In this document: piece by piece, positions 3,446 to 54,014 of the stretch
Layout of the letters: each line of letters begins with the position of its first letter
How positions within the stretch are numbered: position 1 is the stretch's first letter
Translations under genes and position numbers: made by a program
The notes under the pieces: model-generated
Told to the model about the DNA's origin: nothing
What the model saw: the letters and a program-made list of their open reading frames with translations, nothing else
Database searches by the model: none
Origin: Patescibacteria group bacterium
Lineage (GTDB): Bacteria; Patescibacteriota; JABMPQ01; JAQVVF01
Reading direction: 5' to 3'
Length of the DNA: 64,000 nt
Assembly: GCA_041662665.1 (NCBI GenBank)
Contig: JBAZSC010000003.1
Coordinates: forward strand, 143,115 to 207,114

Positions 3446-4015
3446 ATGATGAAGAAGTTTGAGAGTTTTCTAAAAAATAAAAAAGCAAAATATAAGGTAG
3501 TTTCGCATCGCAAGGTTTATACTGCTTGGGATAGTTCAGCGACACAACATATCAATATTAAAACTGTTGCAAAGACATTATTAGTTAAAGCAGATAATGA
3601 TTATTTTTTTGTTGTTTTATCTGCGAATAAAAAATTGGATATAAATAAGCTGAAGAAAATTATTAATGTTTGGCGTGTGAAAGAGGCTAAAACTTTAGAC
3701 AATATAAGAACTGCAACCACTAAAGCATCCGCCTTCGCTAAAGCTTCGGCGGACAGGCAAAAATTATTAAAAGCACAGAAAATTAAAAAAATTTCATTGT
3801 GTTCTGAAAATATTGTTAAGAAAAAAATTGTTGGCAAAGAAGGAGCGATGGCGCCATTCGGCAGTTTTTATGGTTATAAAACTTTTGTTGATTCATTGTT
3901 GTTAAAACAAAAGAAAATTAATTTAAATGCTGGTAGTTTTACTGAATCTCTGGAAATGACTCCAGCGAATTATAAAAAAGTAGAAGAACCAATTGTTGGA
4001 AGTTTTGGAAAATAA
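3446..4015 (+). CDS. YbaK/ProX-type aminoacyl-tRNA deacylase-like protein carrying an in-frame palindromic-element insertion
   Basis: KTLLVKADNDYFFVVLSANKKLDINKLKK and GAMAPFGSFYG resemble the YbaK/ProX editing domain. A GC-rich repeat at 3727-3756 encodes KASAFAKASADRQ. Confidence 0.55.
   Translation: MMKKFESFLKNKKAKYKVVSHRKVYTAWDSSATQHINIKTVAKTLLVKADNDYFFVVLSANKKLDINKLKKIINVWRVKEAKTLDNIRTATTKASAFAKASADRQKLLKAQKIKKISLCSENIVKKKIVGKEGAMAPFGSFYGYKTFVDSLLLKQKKINLNAGSFTESLEMTPANYKKVEEPIVGSFGK
3727..3756. repeat. Palindromic element copy 1 (TCCGCCTTCG...CTTCGGCGGACA family), in-frame inside a CDS
   Basis: tccgccttcgctaaagcttcggcggaca. The outer inverted repeat tccgcc/ggcgga is read directly from the sequence. 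Confidence 0.8.
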
Positions 4016-4750: not shown

Positions 4751-5417
4751 AGGGCCTTTGGATTTACTTTTGGATTTGATTGAAAAAGAAAAAATGGATA
4801 TTACTCATGTTTCATTATCAAAAGTAACAGATGATTATCTAAAATATTTAGAAAATTCAGAGGAAATTAGTCCAGCATTGTTGGCTGATTTTTTGCATGT
4901 GGCAGCACAATTGATTTTGATAAAATCAAGAAACTTATTGCCAGAAATTAATTTAGGAACAGATGAAGAAGTTTCAGCTGCAGAATTGCAAGCTAGATTG
5001 TTGGAATACAAGAAATATAAAGATTTGTCATTAAAAATTCAAGAATTATATGGCAAAAATATTTCTTTTGAACAAAAATTTAGTTTGCAAAAAATCGATG
5101 CTTTCTATCCAGGAAAAACTTTGAATTTAAATAATATGAACTTAGCTTTGTCTGAATTACTTGGTAGATTTGAAAAAATAGAAATATTGGAAAAGAAAAC
5201 AATCAAAAAGGCAGTGTCAATCAAAGAAAAAATTGTTTTTATAAAAGGATTGATTTTGAAGCAAGCAAAATTTAAATTTCATGATTTAATTAAAAATAAA
5301 AAATCAAAGTCTGAAACAATTGTTTCTTTTTTGGCATTGCTGGAATTGAATAAACAGCATTGCTTAAATATCTCGCAAGAAAATATTTTTGGAGATATAC
5401 TTATAAATCGCGACTAG
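4716..5417 (+). CDS. scpA: Segregation and condensation protein A (ScpA)
   Basis: The N-terminal LEKFEGPLDLLLDLIEKEKMDITHVSLSKVTDDYLKYL is the ScpA signature. Start chosen at the internal ATG 4716; the track ORF extends back to 4635. Confidence 0.8.
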   Translation: MQKYNVKLEKFEGPLDLLLDLIEKEKMDITHVSLSKVTDDYLKYLENSEEISPALLADFLHVAAQLILIKSRNLLPEINLGTDEEVSAAELQARLLEYKKYKDLSLKIQELYGKNISFEQKFSLQKIDAFYPGKTLNLNNMNLALSELLGRFEKIEILEKKTIKKAVSIKEKIVFIKGLILKQAKFKFHDLIKNKKSKSETIVSFLALLELNKQHCLNISQENIFGDILINRD

Positions 5418-5451
5418 ATATTCGGATATTACGATATTCGGATATTAGAAA
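5417..5451. repeat. ATATTCGGATATTA tandem motif (locus 1 of 3), between scpA and scpB
   Basis: atattcggatattacgatattcggatattagaaat. Confidence 0.65.
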
Positions 5452-5462
5452 TAAAAATATTT

Positions 5463-7422: not shown

Positions 7423-8661
7423 ATGATATTTGCACATGCGCCCGCAGGATATTTGATATTAAGATTCACAGAAAAATTTTGGAATAAGAAAAAAATTTTC
7501 AAAAAGAAAAAAAGATTGGTTTTATATTTAATTGGAATCATATTTTCTATTTTTCCTGATTTTGATTTGTTTTACCATTATTTTTATTCTGCGAACACTC
7601 CACATCGTCAGTATATTTCGCATGGAATTATTGTTTATCTTGTTTTGTTTTTGTTGATTTACTTGATTGGATTATTAGCAAAAAAACAGTTTATTAAATC
7701 AATTGCTTGGGTGATTTTGCTTGGTGTTTCTACTCATTTATTTCTAGATACTATTGCGTCTGGAATTGCTATTTTTACTCCATTATCTTCTATGATGATT
7801 GGATTAAGATCAATCTGGTTTTTAAAATACAGTTTTTTTACAACAAATTTGTTTTTGATAAATTGTTCTTTAGAATTGTTAATTACTCTTTTTGCGATTG
7901 ATGTTTTTGTCCATGATTTTGTTAAAAATGCAAAATTAAAATTAGGAATTTTTATTGCAAGTATTATAATTTTTATTTCTGGATTTATCGGTTTAGCTTA
8001 TGTGAATGCGCATATTTATAATGGCGGACATTTTGATGCTTATTTTGAAGATAATGACCATGATGGAATTATAAATTTGGTTGATTTTGATATTGATGGT
8101 AATGGAATTTTAAATATTAATGATGCAGATGCTAATGGAAATGGCTTTTCTAATAAAGAAGATATTTTGAGCGCGACAAATTTGATGATTGGCAGATGGT
8201 ACGATTTTACAGAAGGAAGTTGGGGCGAGCTTTTTTCTAGATGGGGATTATTAACAAATTCTGATTTGATATCAAAAACATATGAAGCAGCTGGAATTTA
8301 TTTTCAAACAGAATTTGATAAAGATTACAAAAATAATCCAAATGACTATGTTGGCGTACCTGATGATCCATTGTTTGATCGAAGGACAGAAAATATTTAT
8401 GCATTTTGTAAACATAATGATCGATTGTTTGATGGTAAGAATTTGGAAGTTGGAGATATTGTATTTTTTAATCTACCTTCGTCTGCTGACTCCGGTGGAC
8501 AAGGTAATGGTTTGGCAGGATTAGTAACTTCATTTGATAAAAATAAGGAAACTGATATAATAATAGGGGAACCTGGTAAGATGATATATGAAGAAAATTT
8601 AAACGTTTTGAATGAAAAAATGAATGGCGTAAAAGCATATTGTCGCATAGTTAAAAATTAA
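7423..8661 (+). CDS. Polytopic membrane protein with Dx[DN]xDG calcium-binding-like repeats and a C-terminal soluble domain
   Basis: At least 5 hydrophobic helices in the first 190 aa. Repeats DNDHDGIINLVDFDIDGNGILNINDADANGNG follow, then a C-terminal domain of unknown function. Confidence 0.6.
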   Translation: MIFAHAPAGYLILRFTEKFWNKKKIFKKKKRLVLYLIGIIFSIFPDFDLFYHYFYSANTPHRQYISHGIIVYLVLFLLIYLIGLLAKKQFIKSIAWVILLGVSTHLFLDTIASGIAIFTPLSSMMIGLRSIWFLKYSFFTTNLFLINCSLELLITLFAIDVFVHDFVKNAKLKLGIFIASIIIFISGFIGLAYVNAHIYNGGHFDAYFEDNDHDGIINLVDFDIDGNGILNINDADANGNGFSNKEDILSATNLMIGRWYDFTEGSWGELFSRWGLLTNSDLISKTYEAAGIYFQTEFDKDYKNNPNDYVGVPDDPLFDRRTENIYAFCKHNDRLFDGKNLEVGDIVFFNLPSSADSGGQGNGLAGLVTSFDKNKETDIIIGEPGKMIYEENLNVLNEKMNGVKAYCRIVKN

Positions 8662-8677
8662 TAAAATAATTTTATAG

Positions 8678-8740
8678 GATTGTTAAATTGTTTCATTGTT
8701 AAATTGTTAGCTAAAAAGTTAACAATTTATCAATTTAACA
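8678..8740. repeat. TTGTTAAATTGTT motif cluster (2 direct copies plus 1 inverted), upstream of the CBS gene
   Basis: The exact 13-mer ttgttaaattgtt occurs at 8680 and 8696. Further exact copies are at 47724 and 53834. Confidence 0.55.
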
Positions 8741-9281: not shown

Positions 9282-9315
9282 ATCCGCCTTCGCTTTGCTA
9301 AGCTTCGGCGGACAA
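9282..9315. repeat. Palindromic element copy 2, intergenic (upstream of mutM)
   Basis: atccgccttcgctttgctaagcttcggcggacaa. Confidence 0.8.
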
Positions 9316-10199: not shown

Positions 10200-10233
10200 A
10201 TCCGCCTTCGTCCTGTGGGACTTCGGCGGACAG
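10200..10233. repeat. Palindromic element copy 3, intergenic (downstream of mutM)
   Basis: atccgccttcgtcctgtgggacttcggcggacag, with inner hairpin gtcc-tgtg-ggac. Confidence 0.8.
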
Positions 10234-19342: not shown

Positions 19343-19380
19343 GTTCCGCCTTCGTCTCCTTTCGGGAGACTCCGGCGGAT
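19343..19380. repeat. Palindromic element copy 4, abutting the tRNA-Gln 5' end
   Basis: gttccgccttcgtctcctttcgggagactccggcggat, with inner hairpin gtctcc-tttcg-ggagac. Confidence 0.75.
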
Positions 19381-19385
19381 TGCGA

Positions 19386-19456
19386 TCCGGGATCGTCTAA
19401 TGGTAGGACAACAGGTTCTGGACCTGTTTATCTTGGTTCGAATCCAGGTCCCGGAG
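19386..19456 (+). tRNA. tRNA-Gln (anticodon CTG)
   Basis: Manual fold: acceptor tccggga/tcccgga, D-stem gtct/ggac with a GG loop, anticodon stem acagg/cctgt with loop ttCTGga, T-arm cttgg-TTCGAAT-ccagg, discriminator G. No CCA is encoded. Confidence 0.85.
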
Positions 19457-23016: not shown

Positions 23017-23035
23017 CTTAAAAATTTTAATATTG

Positions 23036-23080
23036 AGATATTCGGATATTACGGATATTAGAAATTAGAAATTAGAAATT
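23036..23080. repeat. ATATTCGGATATTA tandem motif (locus 2 of 3) plus 3x AAATTAG, between the response regulator and kinase genes
   Basis: gatattcggatattacggatattagaaattagaaattagaaatt. Confidence 0.65.
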
Positions 23081-23086
23081 TTCGTC

Positions 23087-28466: not shown

Positions 28467-28500
28467 ATCCGCCTTCGTCCTGCGGGACTTCGGCGGACAA
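28467..28500. repeat. Palindromic element copy 5, intergenic, immediately 5' of the 28510 start codon
   Basis: catccgccttcgtcctgcgggacttcggcggacaa. The inner hairpin is the same as in the nrdG copy. Confidence 0.8.
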
Positions 28501-29063: not shown

Positions 29064-29879
29064 ATGACTGAAGTTTATAATGTAGCGAAAATGGAAGGAA
29101 TCAACAACTTGAAGAAGAAAATGCCAATTCTTGTTTTGGCAGCAGTTGTTGTACTTTTATTGCTTGATGGTGTAGGAACAATTGGAGCAGGTGAGCGAGG
29201 AATTTTGTTGCAATTTGGAGCAGTAAAAGACAATGTTTTTGGCGAAGGTCTTTATTTTAAGATTCCTTTAGTTCAAAAAGTAGTAAAAATGGATGTAAAG
29301 ATTAAAAAAGACGAAGTTCCAGCAAGCGCATCTTCAAAAGATTTGCAAGTTGTAACATCTAAAATTGCAATTAATTATCATTTAGATCCTGATGCAGTTA
29401 ATAAAATTTGGAAAGAAGTTGGCACAGATTATAATGATCGAATAATTGCTCCAGCAATCCAAGAAGCAGTAAAAGCAACAACTGCAAAATTTACAGCTGA
29501 AGAATTAATTATCAAAAGACAAGTTGTTAAAGAGCAAATAAAAGAAAATTTAGCAAAAAGATTAGTAAAAAATTATATAACAGTTGATGAATTGAATATT
29601 GTTGCTTTTGATTTTTCAGAAGCATTTAATAGCGCAATTGAAGCAAAAGTAACAGCAGAACAATTAAAATTAAAAGCAGAACGAGATTTGCAAAGAATTA
29701 AAATTGAAGCTGATCAGAAAATTGCAGAAGCAGAAGGAAAGTCTAAAGCGATCAGAACAGAAGCACAGGCATTGAGTGAAAATGCAAAAGTTGTAGAACT
29801 TCGATGGATTGAAAAATGGGATGGAAAAACTCCAACATATTGGGGTGGAGCAACTCCTTTTATTGGATTAGAAAAGTAA
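29064..29879 (+). CDS. SPFH/band-7 (prohibitin-like) membrane protein
   Basis: N-terminal TM then GERGILLQFGAV...YFKIPLVQKV. The coiled-coil C-terminus is typical of the prohibitin family. Confidence 0.75.
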   Translation: MTEVYNVAKMEGINNLKKKMPILVLAAVVVLLLLDGVGTIGAGERGILLQFGAVKDNVFGEGLYFKIPLVQKVVKMDVKIKKDEVPASASSKDLQVVTSKIAINYHLDPDAVNKIWKEVGTDYNDRIIAPAIQEAVKATTAKFTAEELIIKRQVVKEQIKENLAKRLVKNYITVDELNIVAFDFSEAFNSAIEAKVTAEQLKLKAERDLQRIKIEADQKIAEAEGKSKAIRTEAQALSENAKVVELRWIEKWDGKTPTYWGGATPFIGLEK

Positions 29880-29887
29880 ATTGAATA

Positions 29888-29966
29888 ATCTGCCTTCGTC
29901 CCTCGCTTTGCGAAGATGAGGGACTTCCTCCTTCGCTACGTTACGGAGGACAAGTCGGCGGACAAA
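29888..29966. repeat. Palindromic element copy 6, composite/nested double element
   Basis: atctgccttcg-gtccctc...gagggac-ttcc-tcctccttcg...ggagga-caagtcggcggacaaag. Two nested hairpins lie inside the family termini. Confidence 0.7.
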
Positions 29967-29969
29967 GAA

Positions 29970-30005
29970 AAACAGCCTTGAAATTCAGGGCTGTTTTATT
30001 TTGAA
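29970..30005 (+). terminator. Rho-independent terminator
   Basis: aacagcctt-gaaattc-agggctgtt (one G-U pair) followed by ttttatttt. Confidence 0.65.
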
Positions 30006-31768: not shown

Positions 31769-32686
31769 TTAATGTTGAAATTTTTTCTGCGTTTTCTGCG
31801 TAAGATTCTGCGTTTTTCTGCGATTTATTTTTTTTACGCAGAATGACGCGGAACTAACGCAGAATGTGCAGAATTTATCTGACCCTTTGTTTATTCTCGC
31901 CAAAACGATGCATGTCTGAAGCAGGGATTTTTTTCCAGCATTATCTCTAATTTCAGTACCTGTTACTTTCAAAAAAACATCTTGAAGAGTTGGATTTTCT
32001 TTATTGGTTACTAATTTTTTTAAATTTTCTGAATTATCTAAAGCAACAATTTTTCCATGATCAACAATTGCAATTCTATTTGATAAAATATCAGCTTCTA
32101 ACATGTCATGTGTTGTAAGCAAAATAGTAATTCCTTTTTTATTTAATTCTTGAATAAATTCTCTAATTAAATTGGATGTTTGTGGATCAAGCCCAAGAGT
32201 TGGTTCATCAAGAAAGAGAATATTTGGTTCAGTTAATAAGGCGCGAACAATATTGATTCTTTGTTTCATGCCAGTTGAATATGTTCCAACTTGAGAATCA
32301 AGCCAATCAGTCATGTGCAATCGATCAACCCATTTTTTTGTTCGATCTGTAATTTGTTGTTTTGAGAGATGAAAAAGTTGGCCGAAGAATCTTAGATTTT
32401 CTCGAGCAGTTAATCGATCATAAAGAATAATTTTTTCTGCGACTAAGCCGATTTGTTTTCTAATGTCATCTGGATCTTTTTTTAAATCAAAACCAGCTAT
32501 TTTAATTTCACCTTCTGTTGGCTGTAAAAGTGTGGTTAAAATTCTGATTGTTGTTGACTTGCCAGCACCATTTGGGCCAAGAAATCCAAAGATTTCACCT
32601 TTTTTAATTTCAAAGCTAATATTGTCAACTGCAATAAATTTTTTAAATTTTTTTGTTAAATTTTTTACTTCAATAATATTTTCCAT
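31769..32686 (-). CDS. ABC transporter ATP-binding protein (ABC-2 type) whose 3' tail runs through the CGCAGAA repeat array
   Basis: GPNGAGKST, YSTGMKQRI, LFLDEPTLGLD. The domain ends near LQDVFLKVTG; the final ~55 codons translate repeat DNA. Confidence 0.8.
   Translation of the reverse strand: MENIIEVKNLTKKFKKFIAVDNISFEIKKGEIFGFLGPNGAGKSTTIRILTTLLQPTEGEIKIAGFDLKKDPDDIRKQIGLVAEKIILYDRLTARENLRFFGQLFHLSKQQITDRTKKWVDRLHMTDWLDSQVGTYSTGMKQRINIVRALLTEPNILFLDEPTLGLDPQTSNLIREFIQELNKKGITILLTTHDMLEADILSNRIAIVDHGKIVALDNSENLKKLVTNKENPTLQDVFLKVTGTEIRDNAGKKSLLQTCIVLARINKGSDKFCTFCVSSASFCVKKINRRKTQNLTQKTQKKFQH
31783..31873. promoter_or_regulatory. Palindromic super-array: 4x TTCTGCG, AT spacer, then 4x CGCAGAA, between the ABC ATPase and permease genes on the minus strand
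   Basis: ttctgcg at 31785, 31794, 31806 and 31816. acgcagaa/acgcggaa at 31836, 31846, 31857 and 31866. Confidence 0.6.
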
Positions 32687-34783: not shown

Positions 34784-34866
34784 ACGCAGAACAACGCAGA
34801 AGCTGACGCAGAAGACGCAGAAAAGTTTCCGCATTTTCTGCGTTGGATTCTGCGTATGTCTGCGTT
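34784..34866. promoter_or_regulatory. Everted super-array: 4x ACGCAGAA then 4x (T)TCTGCG, upstream of the MacB-type ATPase gene 34943
   Basis: acgcagaa at 34784, 34794, 34806 and 34814. ttccgca/ttctgcg/ttctgcg/gtctgcg at 34828-34864. Confidence 0.6.
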
Positions 34867-39856: not shown

Positions 39857-40462
39857 ATGATTAAGTATATTTTGCATGGCGGTGCGACGAAAATAGATAA
39901 TAAATCGAATCAAGATTTTAATCAGGAAATTGTAAAAGATTTACAAGAGCCAATTAAGATATTGCTTGTTTGTTTTGCTAAGGATAAAGAGCAATGGAAG
40001 GATGCATTTGAAAGACATAAGAGCTATCTAATAAAATATAATTTAGGTAAGAATTTTGAATTCGCCTTAGCTGATGAAAATTCGGTGAGATTTATTGATC
40101 AGATAAAAAATAATCATGTTTTATATTTTGTGGGAGGAAGTGATGAGTTATTGCAAAAATATTTAAAGAAAATAAATGATTTAGGTACTTTATTTAATGA
40201 TAAAGTTGTTGTAGGTTCTTCAGCTGGAGCAAATATGTTAGCAAAATATTATTATTCAACTGACGATAATTGTATTAAAAATGGTTTGGGAATTTTGCCA
40301 ATTAAAGTTTTTTGTCATTATAAAAATAATTTAAAAGAGCTTGAAGAATTAAAAAAATATAAAGAGAATTTAAAAATATATACGATTTATGAAACGGAAT
40401 ATTTAGTTATAAAACAAATAATATCCCCCTGCCATGGGCAGGGTAGAAGTTTTGAATGTTAA
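39857..40462 (+). CDS. Peptidase S51 (dipeptidase E/cyanophycinase-like) family protein
   Basis: LYFVGGSDELL...VVVGSSAGANMLAKY. The C-terminal 12 codons (SPCHGQGRSFEC) are encoded by a GC-rich hairpin repeat. Confidence 0.55.
   Translation: MIKYILHGGATKIDNKSNQDFNQEIVKDLQEPIKILLVCFAKDKEQWKDAFERHKSYLIKYNLGKNFEFALADENSVRFIDQIKNNHVLYFVGGSDELLQKYLKKINDLGTLFNDKVVVGSSAGANMLAKYYYSTDDNCIKNGLGILPIKVFCHYKNNLKELEELKKYKENLKIYTIYETEYLVIKQIISPCHGQGRSFEC
40425..40449. repeat. GC-rich hairpin repeat (copy B, inverted orientation, in the 3' end of the S51 peptidase CDS)
   Basis: ccccctgccatgggcagggtagaag is the reverse complement of copy A, with one mismatch. Confidence 0.7.
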
Positions 40463-44936: not shown

Positions 44937-44970
44937 ATCCGCCTTCGTCTTGCGAGACTATGGCGGATAA
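44937..44970. repeat. Palindromic element copy 7, in the long nrdD leader region
   Basis: atccgccttcgtcttgcgagactatggcggataaag, with inner hairpin gtct-tgcg-agac. Confidence 0.75.
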
Positions 44971-45084: not shown

Positions 45085-46977
45085 ATGAAGGATCAAAACA
45101 AACAAACAAAAAAGGAGAGAAAAGAAGTAAATGTTGATGTTCTGTCAACCATAGATGAATATTTAGGAAAGATGGATTGGCGAGTTTCAGCAAATGCAAA
45201 CCAAGGCTATTCTTTAGGCGGTATGATTTTGAATACTGCTGGAAAAGTAGTAGCTAATTATTGGTTGCACAAAATTTATCCAAAGGAAGTTGGAGAAGCG
45301 CATATCCATGGTGATTATCATATTCATGATTTGGATATGTTTTCAGGCTATTGCGCTGGTTGGAGCATTAGGCAACTTCTTGAAGAAGGATTTAATGGTG
45401 TTTCTGGTAAGGTTGAATCTGGTCCAGCAAAACATTTAGAAACAGCTTTGGGTCAAATGGTAAATTTTTTAGGAACATTACAAAATGAATGGGCAGGCGC
45501 TCAAGCATTTTCATCTTTTGACACATATTTAGCGCCATTTGTTAAAGTTGATAAATTAAGTTATGAAAGAGTTTTTCAATGCATTCAGCAATTTGTTTTT
45601 AATTTAAATGTTCCATCAAGATGGGGAACACAGACGCCATTTACAAATGTTACTTTAGATTGGGTTTGTCCAGAAGATATGAAAGATCGAAAACCAGTAA
45701 TTGGTGGAAAAGTCGTTGATTTTACTTATGGAGATTGCCAAAAAGAAATGGATTTAGTCAATAAAGCTTTTATTGAAACAATGATTACTGGAGATAATAA
45801 AAGCAGAATTTTTACTTTTCCAATTCCAACTTATAATATTACAAAAGATTTTGATTGGGAAAATGAAAATGTAAAATTATTATTTGAAATGACTGCTAAA
45901 TATGGCACTCCTTATTTTCAAAATTTTTTGAATTCAAGTTTAAAACCATCTGATGTCAGAAGCATGTGCTGTAGATTGCAATTAGATTTGCGTGAATTGA
46001 AAGCAAAAGGCGGAGGTTTGTTTGGTTCAGCAGAAATGACTGGCAGTATTGGTGTTGTAACTATTAATTTGGCAAGAATTGGTTATCTAGCTAAAACAAA
46101 AGAAGAATTTTTACAACGATTAGCAAGATTAATGGATCTTGCAAAGACTTCTTTAGATATGAAAAGAAAAGTAATTGAGGAAAACATGGAAAAAGGATTG
46201 TTGCCATATACAAAACGCTATCTTGGATCTTTGCATAATCATTTTTCAACAATTGGCATTAACGGATCTAATGAAGCCTGTTTGAATTTTTTAAAAAAAG
46301 ATATTTCTCATCCAGAAGCGAAGAAATTCATTGTTGAAGTTTTGGATTTTATGAGAAAAAAATTAGCTGACTATCAAGAAGAGACAAACAATTTTTATAA
46401 TTTGGAGGCAACTCCGGCAGAAGGAACGACTTATAGGTTTGCAAAAGAAGATCAGAAAAGATATCCAGATATTATTCAAGCTGGAACAAAAGATGCGCCA
46501 TATTATACAAACTCAACTCATTTGCCAGTTGGTTATACTGATAATCCAATGGAAGCTTTGGATCATCAAGATGATTTGCAGACTAAATATACAGGCGGAA
46601 CAGTATTGCATTTATTTTTGGGCGAAAGGATTATGAATTGGAAAGTTTGTCGAGATTTAGTAAAAAGAGTAGCTGAAAATTACAGATTGCCATATTTTAC
46701 GATGACTCCGACATTTAGCATTTGTCCAACGCATGGCTATTTGAATGGCGAGCAAAAGAATTGCCCAATTTGTGAAAAAGAATGCGAAGTTTGGTCAAGA
46801 GTAATGGGATATTTTAGACCTGTTTCACAATGGAATAAAGGCAAGCAAAGTGAATATAAAGAACGCAAAGAATATGAAATTAAGAATTTAAAATATGAAA
46901 ATAGCAGGATTTCAGAAATTAAGCCTATTGGAATATCCAGACCGGATTTGCGCAATAGTGTTTCTGCAAGGATGTAA
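45085..46977 (+). CDS. nrdD: Anaerobic ribonucleoside-triphosphate reductase (class III)
   Basis: C-terminal Zn/Gly-radical region CPTHGYLNGEQKNCPICEK...RVMGYFRPVSQWNKGKQSE and a central RNR fold. Confidence 0.9.
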   Translation: MKDQNKQTKKERKEVNVDVLSTIDEYLGKMDWRVSANANQGYSLGGMILNTAGKVVANYWLHKIYPKEVGEAHIHGDYHIHDLDMFSGYCAGWSIRQLLEEGFNGVSGKVESGPAKHLETALGQMVNFLGTLQNEWAGAQAFSSFDTYLAPFVKVDKLSYERVFQCIQQFVFNLNVPSRWGTQTPFTNVTLDWVCPEDMKDRKPVIGGKVVDFTYGDCQKEMDLVNKAFIETMITGDNKSRIFTFPIPTYNITKDFDWENENVKLLFEMTAKYGTPYFQNFLNSSLKPSDVRSMCCRLQLDLRELKAKGGGLFGSAEMTGSIGVVTINLARIGYLAKTKEEFLQRLARLMDLAKTSLDMKRKVIEENMEKGLLPYTKRYLGSLHNHFSTIGINGSNEACLNFLKKDISHPEAKKFIVEVLDFMRKKLADYQEETNNFYNLEATPAEGTTYRFAKEDQKRYPDIIQAGTKDAPYYTNSTHLPVGYTDNPMEALDHQDDLQTKYTGGTVLHLFLGERIMNWKVCRDLVKRVAENYRLPYFTMTPTFSICPTHGYLNGEQKNCPICEKECEVWSRVMGYFRPVSQWNKGKQSEYKERKEYEIKNLKYENSRISEIKPIGISRPDLRNSVSARM

Positions 46978-47617
46978 TTTTAAGTGTCCTTTTTGCCATA
47001 ATCCAGAATTGGTATATAACGATCCGCCTACGTCCTGCGGGACTTTGGCGGACAAAGTAACCGAGGAAGAGGTCTTCGGTTATTTGGTTAAGAAGAAAAA
47101 AATGCTAGATGGAGTTTGTATCACAGGAGGCGAGCCAACTTTGCATGCTGATTTGATTGATTTTATTGTAAAGCTTAAAAAGATTGGATATTTGGTTAAG
47201 CTGGATACAAATGGATCAAACCCTAAAATGTTGAAAGAACTTTTTGACAAAAAATTACTTGATTATGTGGCTATGGATTTAAAAGCACCATTTGAAAGAT
47301 ATTCGGAAATTGTGGGTTTAGGGCATAGGGCACAGGGCTTGGGTATTATTGAAAATTGTAAAAAGTCTTTTAAATTAATCCAGGAATCTTCCGTTGATCA
47401 TGAATTTAGGACGACTGTTTTTCCGCAAGAACATATAGAAAATGATTTTATGAAAATGGCAGGATATCTGAAAAAAGGCGAGAAATATTATTTGCAAAAT
47501 ATTAGATACATTAAAAATTTAGATCAAAATTTGGATCAAAGTAAAAAAATAGATATTGCTATGCTTTTGAATAAATTAAAGAGTAAATTTCCTGATATTT
47601 GTGTTGAAGAAAGATAA
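46895..47617 (+). CDS. nrdG: Anaerobic ribonucleotide reductase activating protein (radical SAM) with an in-frame palindromic-element insertion
   Basis: GCNFKCPFCHNPEL, then the insertion-encoded DPPTSCGTLADK, then ITGGEPTL. Overlaps the nrdD 3' end by 83 nt. Confidence 0.8.
   Translation: MKIAGFQKLSLLEYPDRICAIVFLQGCNFKCPFCHNPELVYNDPPTSCGTLADKVTEEEVFGYLVKKKKMLDGVCITGGEPTLHADLIDFIVKLKKIGYLVKLDTNGSNPKMLKELFDKKLLDYVAMDLKAPFERYSEIVGLGHRAQGLGIIENCKKSFKLIQESSVDHEFRTTVFPQEHIENDFMKMAGYLKKGEKYYLQNIRYIKNLDQNLDQSKKIDIAMLLNKLKSKFPDICVEER
47011..47046. repeat. Palindromic element copy 8, in-frame inside nrdG
   Basis: atccgcctacgtcctgcgggactttggcggacaaag, which encodes DPPTSCGTLADK. Confidence 0.8.
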
Positions 47618-47625
47618 TATTCGGA

Positions 47626-47660
47626 TATTAGGATATTCGGAAATTAAAAAAATTGAATAT
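47626..47660. repeat. ATATTCGGATATTA tandem motif (locus 3 of 3), after nrdG
   Basis: aatattcggatattaggatattcggaaattaaaaaaatt. Confidence 0.65.
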
Positions 47661-47831
47661 TAAATACAGAGTTTACACTTTGTATTTTTTTTGTTAAAAT
47701 AAACATATTGTTGAATTGTTAGATTGTTAAATTGTTAAGATTTGAATACGATTAGCAATTAAATAATTTAGTACTTGAACAATTTTGGTCATAAAAAAAC
47801 GCTTTAATAGCGTTTGAGTAAAAAGAGCAGA

Positions 47832-53817: not shown

Positions 53818-54014
53818 TGTGCAATTGCTAAAATTGTTAAATTGTTTTATATTAAAATTGAAAGTTAGAAAATATATATGGATAAGCAAACACAAAAAGA
53901 ATTCACAAATCTAAAAAAATTAATAAAGGATGGTTTTAAGATGCAGGATGATGGAATTGTTGAGAAATTAGATAAGTTTAAATTATCAATTGATGAAAAA
54001 ATGATAAATTAGCC

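Follow-up and report, generated by a model that had tools for sequence, protein, structure and literature searches.

The stretch of DNA analysed here, 64,000 nucleotides from a Patescibacteria group bacterium (GenBank assembly GCA_041662665.1, contig JBAZSC010000003.1, positions 143,115 to 207,114 of the forward strand) and referred to below as the window, includes the gene for the radical-SAM (S-adenosylmethionine) activase NrdG, with a GC-rich palindromic segment of 36 nt within its coding sequence. We consider it likely that this segment is an intragenic copy of a dispersed hairpin family resembling the repetitive extragenic palindromes (REPs), that it is tolerated by its host gene, and that nrdG is not a pseudogene. 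The window is about 30% G+C, with GC skew positive throughout. The original prediction had a GC-rich palindrome lying in-frame in nrdG between the CNFKCPFC and GGEP motifs, and this is borne out by the sequence, but the coordinates given for it (47011-47046) need to be moved about 10 nt in the 3' direction. The hairpin occupies 47023-47052 and the complete unit 47022-47057. The features of the locus are as follows.

45085-46977, + strand: nrdD, anaerobic ribonucleoside-triphosphate reductase (Pfam NRDD, 666 bits; NCBIfam PRK08270, 1089 bits)
46895-47617, + strand: nrdG, NrdG2-type radical-SAM activase, 240 aa, intact and carrying the insert (TIGR02495, 212 bits)
46973-46996, + strand: CNFKCPFC codons (C27, C31, C34), the [4Fe-4S] cluster motif CX3CX2C, invariant columns in a 117-sequence alignment
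47022-47057, + strand: 36-nt repeat unit ATCCGCC TAC GTCC TGCG GGAC TTT GGCGGAC AAAG, translated in-frame as (D)PPTSCGTLADK
47023-47052, + strand: hairpin core TCCGCC TAC GTCC TGCG GGAC TTT GGCGGA, with a 6-bp outer stem, 3x3 internal loop, 4-bp inner stem and 4-nt loop
47126-47137, + strand: GGEP codons (G78-P81), the SAM-binding motif, 3' of the insert, with T77 G78 G79 E80 invariant

The conserved flanks A...CAAAG extend the hairpin of nrdG to the 36-nt unit, and codons D43 to K54 of the gene (DPPTSCGTLADK) are at 47021-47056. The hairpin folds as RNA at -18.6 kcal/mol (z = -3.8) and as DNA at -10.3 kcal/mol (z = -3.2). For comparison there are five related lineages with syntenic loci of 2-21 kb, namely L001 (GCA_964574655.1), L002, L003/L004, L005/L006 and L007. 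The insert had been said to add about 12 residues, with a 12-aa gap expected in an alignment of orthologues. The unit does encode 12 residues and the segment is missing in four of the related lineages, but the net gain over the nearest element-free orthologues is 6 residues (VFDNKNKTQITEEE as against VYNDPPTSCGTLADKVTEEE), the window NrdG being 6 residues longer than the L002, L003 and L005 proteins.

The pattern TCCGCC-N8-30-GGCGGA has 7 matches in the window as against 0.00 in shuffled sequence, and when up to 2 mismatches are permitted in each arm the number of copies rises to 10, every one of them on the + strand with the - strand having none, as against 0.04 in shuffles. The family accounts for 7 of the 10 GC-rich hairpins with a 6-bp stem in the window. 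Its consensus, A-TCCGCC-TTC-G(variable stem-loop)C-TTC-GGCGGA-C-A-R-G, is a two-tier hairpin: the outer stem has 6 bp, the internal loop is a symmetric TTC/TTC, a G-C pair closes a variable inner stem-loop, and the 3' tail is CARG. The inner stems found in the window are GTCC/GGAC, GTCT/AGAC, GTCTCC/GGAGAC, GCTT/AAGC and GCT/AGC. Units are 26-36 nt long and fold as RNA at -13.5 to -19.2 kcal/mol (z from -1.9 to -3.9), with folding also seen for DNA. When 12 copies are aligned, pairing holds for 98.3% of cells, 4 pairs have changed on both sides and 13 cells are compensatory; covariation as strong as this occurred in 0 of 500 shuffles. Over 28 nt the nrdG copy differs from the family at 2-3 positions, and its inner stem-loop, GTCC TGCG GGAC, is identical to that of the copy at 28468. 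Family statistics and covariation thus bear out the proposal that the segment in nrdG is a copy of a dispersed palindromic family.

Seven of the 10 window copies are intergenic, several of them 0-43 nt 3' of a stop codon, and 3 are within open reading frames (ORFs). Copies outside nrdG are listed below.

3728-3753, + strand: copy in-frame (KASAFAKASADRQ) in the YbaK/tRNA_edit-domain ORF 3446-4015
8472-8499, + strand: decayed copy TCTACC...GGTGGA in ORF 7423-8661 (YdjM/DUF1287), assigned to the ORF by position
9283-9312, + strand: intergenic copy in the spacer between a CBS-domain gene and fpg
10201-10230, + strand: intergenic copy 43 nt 3' of the fpg stop codon
19345-19379, + strand: copy 6 nt 5' of tRNA-Gln (19386-19456)
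28468-28497, + strand: intergenic copy, 23 nt past a stop codon and 13 nt ahead of the next ATG
29889-29962, + strand: compound copy, a TCCTCC...GGAGGA unit nested in a TCTGCC...GGCGGA unit, 3' of the stop codon at 29879
44938-44967, + strand: copy upstream of nrdD, with no counterpart in the syntenic spacer of L001, L003 or L005

The YbaK-like ORF, when aligned to PDB 3op6, has about 37 surplus residues where the family copy sits. The 8472 copy folds at -14.8 kcal/mol (z = -3.9), with a minimum-energy pairing that differs from the two-tier hairpin. The nesting in the compound copy at 29889-29962 suggests that elements insert into one another. This copy is followed, at about 29975-30000, by a canonical terminator consisting of the hairpin CAGCCTTGAAATTCAGGGCTG and a T-run. 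The family elements themselves have no T-runs, and we can therefore rule out that they are the ordinary terminators of this genome.

State of the nrdG gene

The nrdG gene adjoins nrdD directly on its 3' side, in a different reading frame and with an overlap of 83 nt (46895-46977) that is common to all of the relatives compared. Its product (NCBI record MFA6296782.1, 240 aa) is well above the curated cutoff for TIGR02495 NrdG2 (212 bits as against 131.15), and is covered 100% by homologues of 229-230 aa. The ORF is full-length, with every residue that is invariant in the alignment of 117 NrdG sequences, C27, C31, C34 and T77-P81 being among the invariant columns. The activase motifs and reading frame are thus unbroken on both sides of the element, as was claimed, and there is no frameshift truncating the 240-aa ORF. 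In comparisons with five relatives dN/dS, the ratio of nonsynonymous to synonymous substitution rates, is 0.11-0.18 (dS about 0.9-1.8), and nrdG is under purifying selection.

The original prediction left a choice between a gene that tolerates a surface-loop insertion and a recent pseudogene disabled by it. What might be taken to favour the pseudogene is that automatic gene callers shorten nrdG. The JGI call is 219 aa, starting at an internal GTG, the Logan call is 202 aa, starting at a TTG just 5' of the element, and the shortened records (219, 203 and 202 aa, from JGI and Logan) lack the CX3CX2C motif. However the shortened calls stem from the overlap of nrdD and nrdG. The intact ORF and motifs and the low dN/dS therefore lead us to reject the pseudogene as very improbable, and it is the tolerant gene that stands. 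The nrdG gene of L001 is also intact with a similar insert, and the neighbouring NrdD is 94-95% conserved. We infer from the sequence that the activase stays functional with its insert. For annotation the case is instructive, in that inserts together with the nrdD/nrdG overlap lead gene callers to shorten a radical-SAM enzyme, at the cost of its cluster motif.

That the insert is an artefact of assembly or a chimera has a negligible probability, as a Logan assembly made independently from a different run (L129) shows 100% identity along 8,796 nt, both elements included, and the same protein is on record at JGI, NCBI and Logan.

An AlphaFold (AF2) model of NrdG based on the 117 sequences has a mean predicted local distance difference test score (pLDDT) of 93.6, and has the fold of pyruvate formate-lyase activating enzyme, with template-modelling (TM) scores of 0.70-0.72 to 3C8F/3CB8. 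The mean pLDDT drops to 55 for residues 41-50, with values below 50 at 47-50, in the insert, and residues 40-56 are all coil. Residues 141-150, a second variable site discussed below, have a mean pLDDT of 74. The insert thus falls within a stretch of coil that joins the CX3CX2C loop to helix 1 and has low confidence in an otherwise confident model, which confirms the surface loop that had been predicted.

We also note that NrdG evolves much faster than its substrate enzyme NrdD. Across the five lineages NrdD identity is 94-95% and that of NrdG just 69-83%, the exception being the near-identical pair L003/L005 (99.5% for NrdD and 92% for NrdG).

Orthologues and origin of the nrdG copy

In L002, L003/L004, L005/L006 and L007 the nrdG gene has an AT-rich native loop (e.g. 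VFDNKNKTQITEEEI) with no palindrome, and no family copies were found in the examined 2-21 kb syntenic loci of L002, L003, L005 and L007. In the case of L001 there are 3 family copies in 20.6 kb, one of them within nrdG at almost the same place as in the window, so that both family-bearing loci (10 copies in the window and 3 in L001) carry an nrdG copy. The L001 copy reads GAT CCT CCT TCG TCC TGC GGG ACT TCG GAG GAC, with outer stem TCCTCC/GGAGGA; it leaves an intact gene and gives no net change in length. The junctions of the two nrdG copies are 1 codon apart on the 5' side and 5 codons apart on the 3' side. Identities of the S11 peptidase and ClpB give the relationship ((window,L002),((L003,L005),L001)), in which the carriers are not sisters. 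As each carrier has a closer relative without the element, and as the junctions differ, two independent gains are more parsimonious than a single ancestral gain followed by two losses. The L001 copy would then most simply have arisen separately, in the same permissive loop.

NrdG proteins had been said to have no insert at this position. This is broadly true, with the qualification that the loop is naturally variable in length among NrdG2 proteins. In a sample that drew on metagenome nrdG relatives of up to 54% identity (mostly up to 50%), which did not inform on gain or loss of the insert, the segment from CX3CX2C to GGEP is 47-51 aa in 62 of 64 NrdG2 proteins, and it is 55 aa in the window gene and 56 aa in L008. 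The excess length in L008, which is from a different lineage of the candidate phyla radiation (CPR), is due to an unrelated palindrome (TCCCCCCTTTCAAAGGGGGGA); at L008:2590-2650 the palindrome CTCCCCTCTGTCCCCCCTTTCAAAGGGGGGAAGGGAAGGGGGG is in-frame in the same NrdG loop and is translated as SPLSPLSKGGREGG. Since both outliers owe their length to palindromes, the loop is a recurrent landing place for palindromes.

There is a second length-variable loop in NrdG, at 47314-47344 on the + strand (codons 141-150, GLGHRAQGLG). It is encoded by GGGTTTAGGGCATAGGGCACAGGGCTTGGG, the sole motif with four G-tracts (G-quadruplex type) on either strand of the window. In L001 the corresponding loop has (GCTTCGGA)x5, read as IFGASELRSFGASEL, and in L007 it has ATTCGGATATT repeats, read as RIFGYSDIIKFG.

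The explanation that we propose is that a REP-like miniature hairpin family spread through this lineage of Patescibacteria, and that one copy landed in nrdG, in the part of NrdG2 that runs from the CX3CX2C cluster loop to helix 1 and is variable in length. The copy is a multiple of three in length and free of stops in the frame used, giving a disordered surface coil rich in Pro, Ser, Gly and Thr, so that the activase would stay functional. The insert would be a passenger, with selection letting such copies survive only in permissive loops. Arrival was presumably by an event at the DNA level, either transposition or gene conversion, with a trans-acting enzyme encoded outside the window, and about 6 native loop codons were probably lost with or after the insertion.

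Several observations weigh against this explanation. Without the 36 nt the loop of the window gene would be shorter than that of any homologue, and native codons must therefore have been lost with or after insertion, or been overwritten by the element. A simple cut-and-paste insertion is thus insufficient, and we must suppose replacement or else trimming at a later time. The comparison of filled with empty sites, for the nrdG copy and intergenic copies, revealed neither a target-site duplication nor a clean empty site, in alignments that were themselves not clean. Pfam searches of about 60 window ORFs gave no transposase, and tblastn searches with IS608 TnpA and the E. coli REP-associated tyrosine transposase (RAYT) gave no match, which is a weak negative; no RAYT (Y1/HUH transposase) was found in the 64-kb window or in the fetched loci of the relatives. 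The function of the NrdG protein is itself judged from sequence. Finally, nrdG is the sole site common to the window and L001, which are not sisters, the other copies being non-syntenic, and this could mean that the hairpin is selected for and not just tolerated.

One alternative is that the palindrome arose locally, by slippage or a template switch at a quasi-palindrome native to nrdG, its likeness to the family being incidental. It is the case that native sequences beside both variable sites of nrdG resemble local repeats. At the first site the native ACCGAGGAAGAGGTCTTCGGT (TEEEVFG), just 3' of the element, is a small hairpin with CTTCGG, like the arms of the element, and at the second the native AGATATTCGGAAATT matches the ATATTCGGATATT repeat that is expanded there in L007. 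However the 28-nt family match, with the inner stem-loop shared with the 28468 copy, has a chance expectation of 0.00, and the lineages that lack a family copy in the examined loci also lack the nrdG copy. We thus regard a purely local origin as improbable. The repeat-like native flanks may hint at homology- or structure-directed copying at the nrdG sites.

The hairpin in other phyla and among known repeats

The family was also sought with the pattern ATCCGCCTTCG-N4-20-CTTCGGCGGAC, matched exactly in a set with a single genome for each GTDB species. The pattern has 22 fixed bases, and we estimate about 1-3 chance matches for it. At least 120 stretches have the hairpin, and viral contigs gave 14 more. 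Among the matches listed are Bradyrhizobium and other Alphaproteobacteria, Bacteroidales, Patescibacteria, Planctomycetes, Acidobacteria, Verrucomicrobia, Armatimonadota and others, and the G+C content of the stretches ranges from 35% to 71%. The family is thus dispersed and palindromic, as the original prediction had it, but is not specific to one lineage. The inner part, which was left free by the search, is again a small covarying palindrome (CCAAGG 22, CCGAGG 11, CTAAAG 8 and TTAAAA 5 among the matches listed), and R-N-G is conserved directly after GGCGGAC.

In the low-GC loci among the matches listed, about 10 of 34 copies are inside long ORFs, in either orientation, and mostly read SAFAKASAD(K) or, when antisense, SAEALAKAD; the PP(T/S)SCG frame that is used by the nrdG copies is the rarer one. 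The bias is suggestive of a filter by which selection spares harmless peptides, with the reservation that some variants have stops in other frames. With regard to orientation there is no relation to flanking genes in the low-GC genomes (++ 4, -- 5, +- 5 and -+ 4), and a DNA-level repeat therefore fits better than a strand-specific RNA signal. There is a weak trend with local GC skew over 121 loci (70 to 51, or 20 to 8 where |skew| is above 0.05).

In unrelated phyla (L019, L088 and L105) the hairpin is 3-6 nt 5' of the mature 5' end of a tRNA, which may be compared with the window copy at 19345-19379. In Bacteroidales/Ignavibacteria-like metagenome-assembled genomes it makes up the first part of a noncoding unit, conserved and about 115 nt long, with a terminator at its end (L084:291-400; also in L027, L034, L065, L111 and L117, with variants in L043, L045 and L090). 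The hairpin is followed in this unit by GCGAAGGACAGGTATAATTCCTCGGTGCTTGCACCGTTTTTT and then by a hairpin CCAGAGCTTGCTCTGG, with a possible alternative pairing. In Bradyrhizobium and related loci (e.g. L030, L033 and L058) the inner sequence is CCCGAAGGCGGG and the hairpin is nested in a longer palindrome, CCTCTCCCCGC...GCGGGGAGAGG. The "GCGG/CCGC-type loops" mentioned for GTAG-14 REPs (PMC3733652) are possibly the counterpart of this nested form.

No Rfam family is matched: at the gathering threshold the complete window and 18 loci yielded nothing beyond tRNAs or noise, and the same was true of the element and the Bacteroidales unit at E<=10. Plasmid and phage collections gave marginal partial matches only. 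In the literature, searches with sequence strings of the element found unrelated primer matches only, and those combining CPR or Patescibacteria with REP, RAYT or MITE (a miniature transposable element with inverted repeats) found nothing on CPR, the RepRanger paper (PMC12306157) included.

These distributions have to be considered in relation to the possibility that the hairpin is a functional nucleic-acid module, such as a binding or processing site for a conserved host factor or a regulatory RNA or DNA structure, and that selection keeps the nrdG copy, for example for tuning nrdDG expression, for mRNA processing or for translation speed. The hairpin with its conserved 3' R-N-G tail in many phyla and viral contigs, its position next to tRNA genes in several genomes and its place as 5' module of the Bacteroidales unit would all fit such a role, as would the difference between the L001 and window nrdG copies in the outer stem, which is a compensatory G:C to T:A change. 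However the TCCTCC/GGAGGA variant is also present at another L001 locus and in the window, and is therefore a subfamily marker rather than a local compensation. L002, L003, L005 and L007 do without an nrdG copy, orientation relative to flanking genes is random in low-GC genomes with intragenic copies antisense as often as sense, and there is no Rfam match. We think it unlikely that the nrdG copy is kept for such a function.

A broader form of the idea is somewhat less doubtful, and we raise it tentatively. The two-tier hairpin TCCGCC-UUC-G...C-UUC-GGCGGA-C-A-R-G may be an undescribed cross-phylum module that is recognised by a conserved host or mobile-element factor, and not just selfish DNA, in which case its recurrence in nrdG would reflect targeting or selection. 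The hairpin is conserved at 22 of 22 fixed bases, these being the ones fixed by the search, from Patescibacteria to Bradyrhizobium, Bacteroidales, Planctomycetes, Acidobacteria and viral contigs. If there is such a module, the native TTCGG quasi-palindromes by both variable nrdG sites would fit a structure- or homology-directed mode of copying that overwrites loop codons and does not simply insert.

Returning to the tolerated REP-like copy that we prefer, in-frame palindromic repeats are already known from Rickettsia, where Ogata et al. reportedly described the Rickettsia palindromic elements (RPEs) in 2000 as lying in-frame in genes. RPEs are about 100-150 bp long and Rickettsia-specific. As in their case, we have a dispersed palindromic repeat that is both intergenic and in-frame in intact conserved genes, adding a surface peptide without loss of function, in a reduced AT-rich genome. 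Our family differs in having units of 26-36 nt, a Patescibacteria host and a distribution over many phyla, and is probably unrelated to RPEs in sequence. The RPE-like behaviour suggested earlier is thus valid as an analogy, given the in-frame copy in the YbaK-like ORF, the copy that lies by position in ORF 7423-8661 and the copies elsewhere in ORFs (about 10 of 34). That the element is itself an RPE is ruled out by its length of 36 nt, as against about 100-150 nt, and by the different phylum.

The GC clusters of yeast mitochondrial DNA are short GC-rich palindromes in an AT-rich genome, occasionally in-frame in a protein gene (var1), and probably spread by a conversion-like process without an encoded transposase. 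The likeness to our family is in the short GC-rich palindromes in AT-rich DNA and the occasional in-frame position in a protein gene. However the yeast clusters are in a eukaryotic organelle and belong to unrelated sequence classes, and we know of no link between them and bacteria.

REPs are the closest in form. REP-decorated proteins are listed by Di Nocera et al. (2013), who regard RPE-4 and RPE-6 as equivalent to CGTC REPs, which have 8-9-bp stems starting with A/T pairs, a CCA tail and no known dedicated transposase (PMC3733652). Like the GTAG and CGTC REPs (PMC3733652), our elements are multicopy hairpins, rich in GC and 20-40 nt long, that mostly lie just 3' of ORFs with a minority in open genes, and show compensatory stem changes; some families are cross-phylum. 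However they have no GTAG or CGTC (TGTC/CCTC) tag, their ends being A|TCCGCC...GGCGGA|CARG with the reverse strand starting YTTGTCCGCC. The 6-bp stem has all pairs but one G/C, in contrast to CGTC REPs, with no A/T start and no CCA tail, and the two-tier architecture with a TTC/TTC internal loop is unlike REPs in general. Unlike REPINs (paired inverted REPs), window copies are single and co-oriented with none on the minus strand, and the one compound copy is nested and not inverted.

With regard to MITEs, one report (PMC5896051) describes those of Coxiella burnetii as non-autonomous repeats that end up in ORFs and alter proteins, and to that extent they resemble our elements as repeats within ORFs that change proteins. 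MITEs are longer, with terminal inverted repeats and target-site duplications, whereas here the whole unit is a hairpin and no target-site duplication is evident.

The nrdG insertion itself is thus an ordinary example of a known phenomenon, in-frame palindromic repeats being known as RPEs and REPs, but the family fails their defining sequence features. It extends the in-frame spread of tiny palindromic repeats, previously known for Rickettsia RPEs and some proteobacterial REPs, to the ultra-small AT-rich genomes of Patescibacteria (CPR), and the insert serves as a natural map of NrdG loops that tolerate insertions. A cross-phylum hairpin family that is absent from Rfam and has no known mobilising enzyme may merit a study of its own.

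Other repeats in the window

The window has a second family of GC-rich palindromes, CCCTGCC-N3-GGCAGGG, with copies at 1209-1225 and 40427-40443 in opposite orientation and with about 39 nt of similar flanks. One copy is just past the aspS stop codon and the other is in the 3' end of a peptidase S51 ORF (39857-40462). Runs of the heptamer TTCTGCG, direct and inverted, are near two ABC-transporter gene clusters (31783-31822 and 34785-34864).

Two sets of direct repeats also touch the nrdG locus. Clusters of ATATTCGGATATTA(C/G)G come right after stop codons at 5416-5462 (scpA/scpB), 23020-23082 (response regulator/histidine kinase) and 47615-47661 (after nrdG), and the native nrdG codons AGATATTCGGAAATT at 47299 match this motif. 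Intergenic ATTGTTAAATTGTT direct repeats are at 8679-8717, 47707-47745 and 53833-53871, with one set 3' of nrdG.

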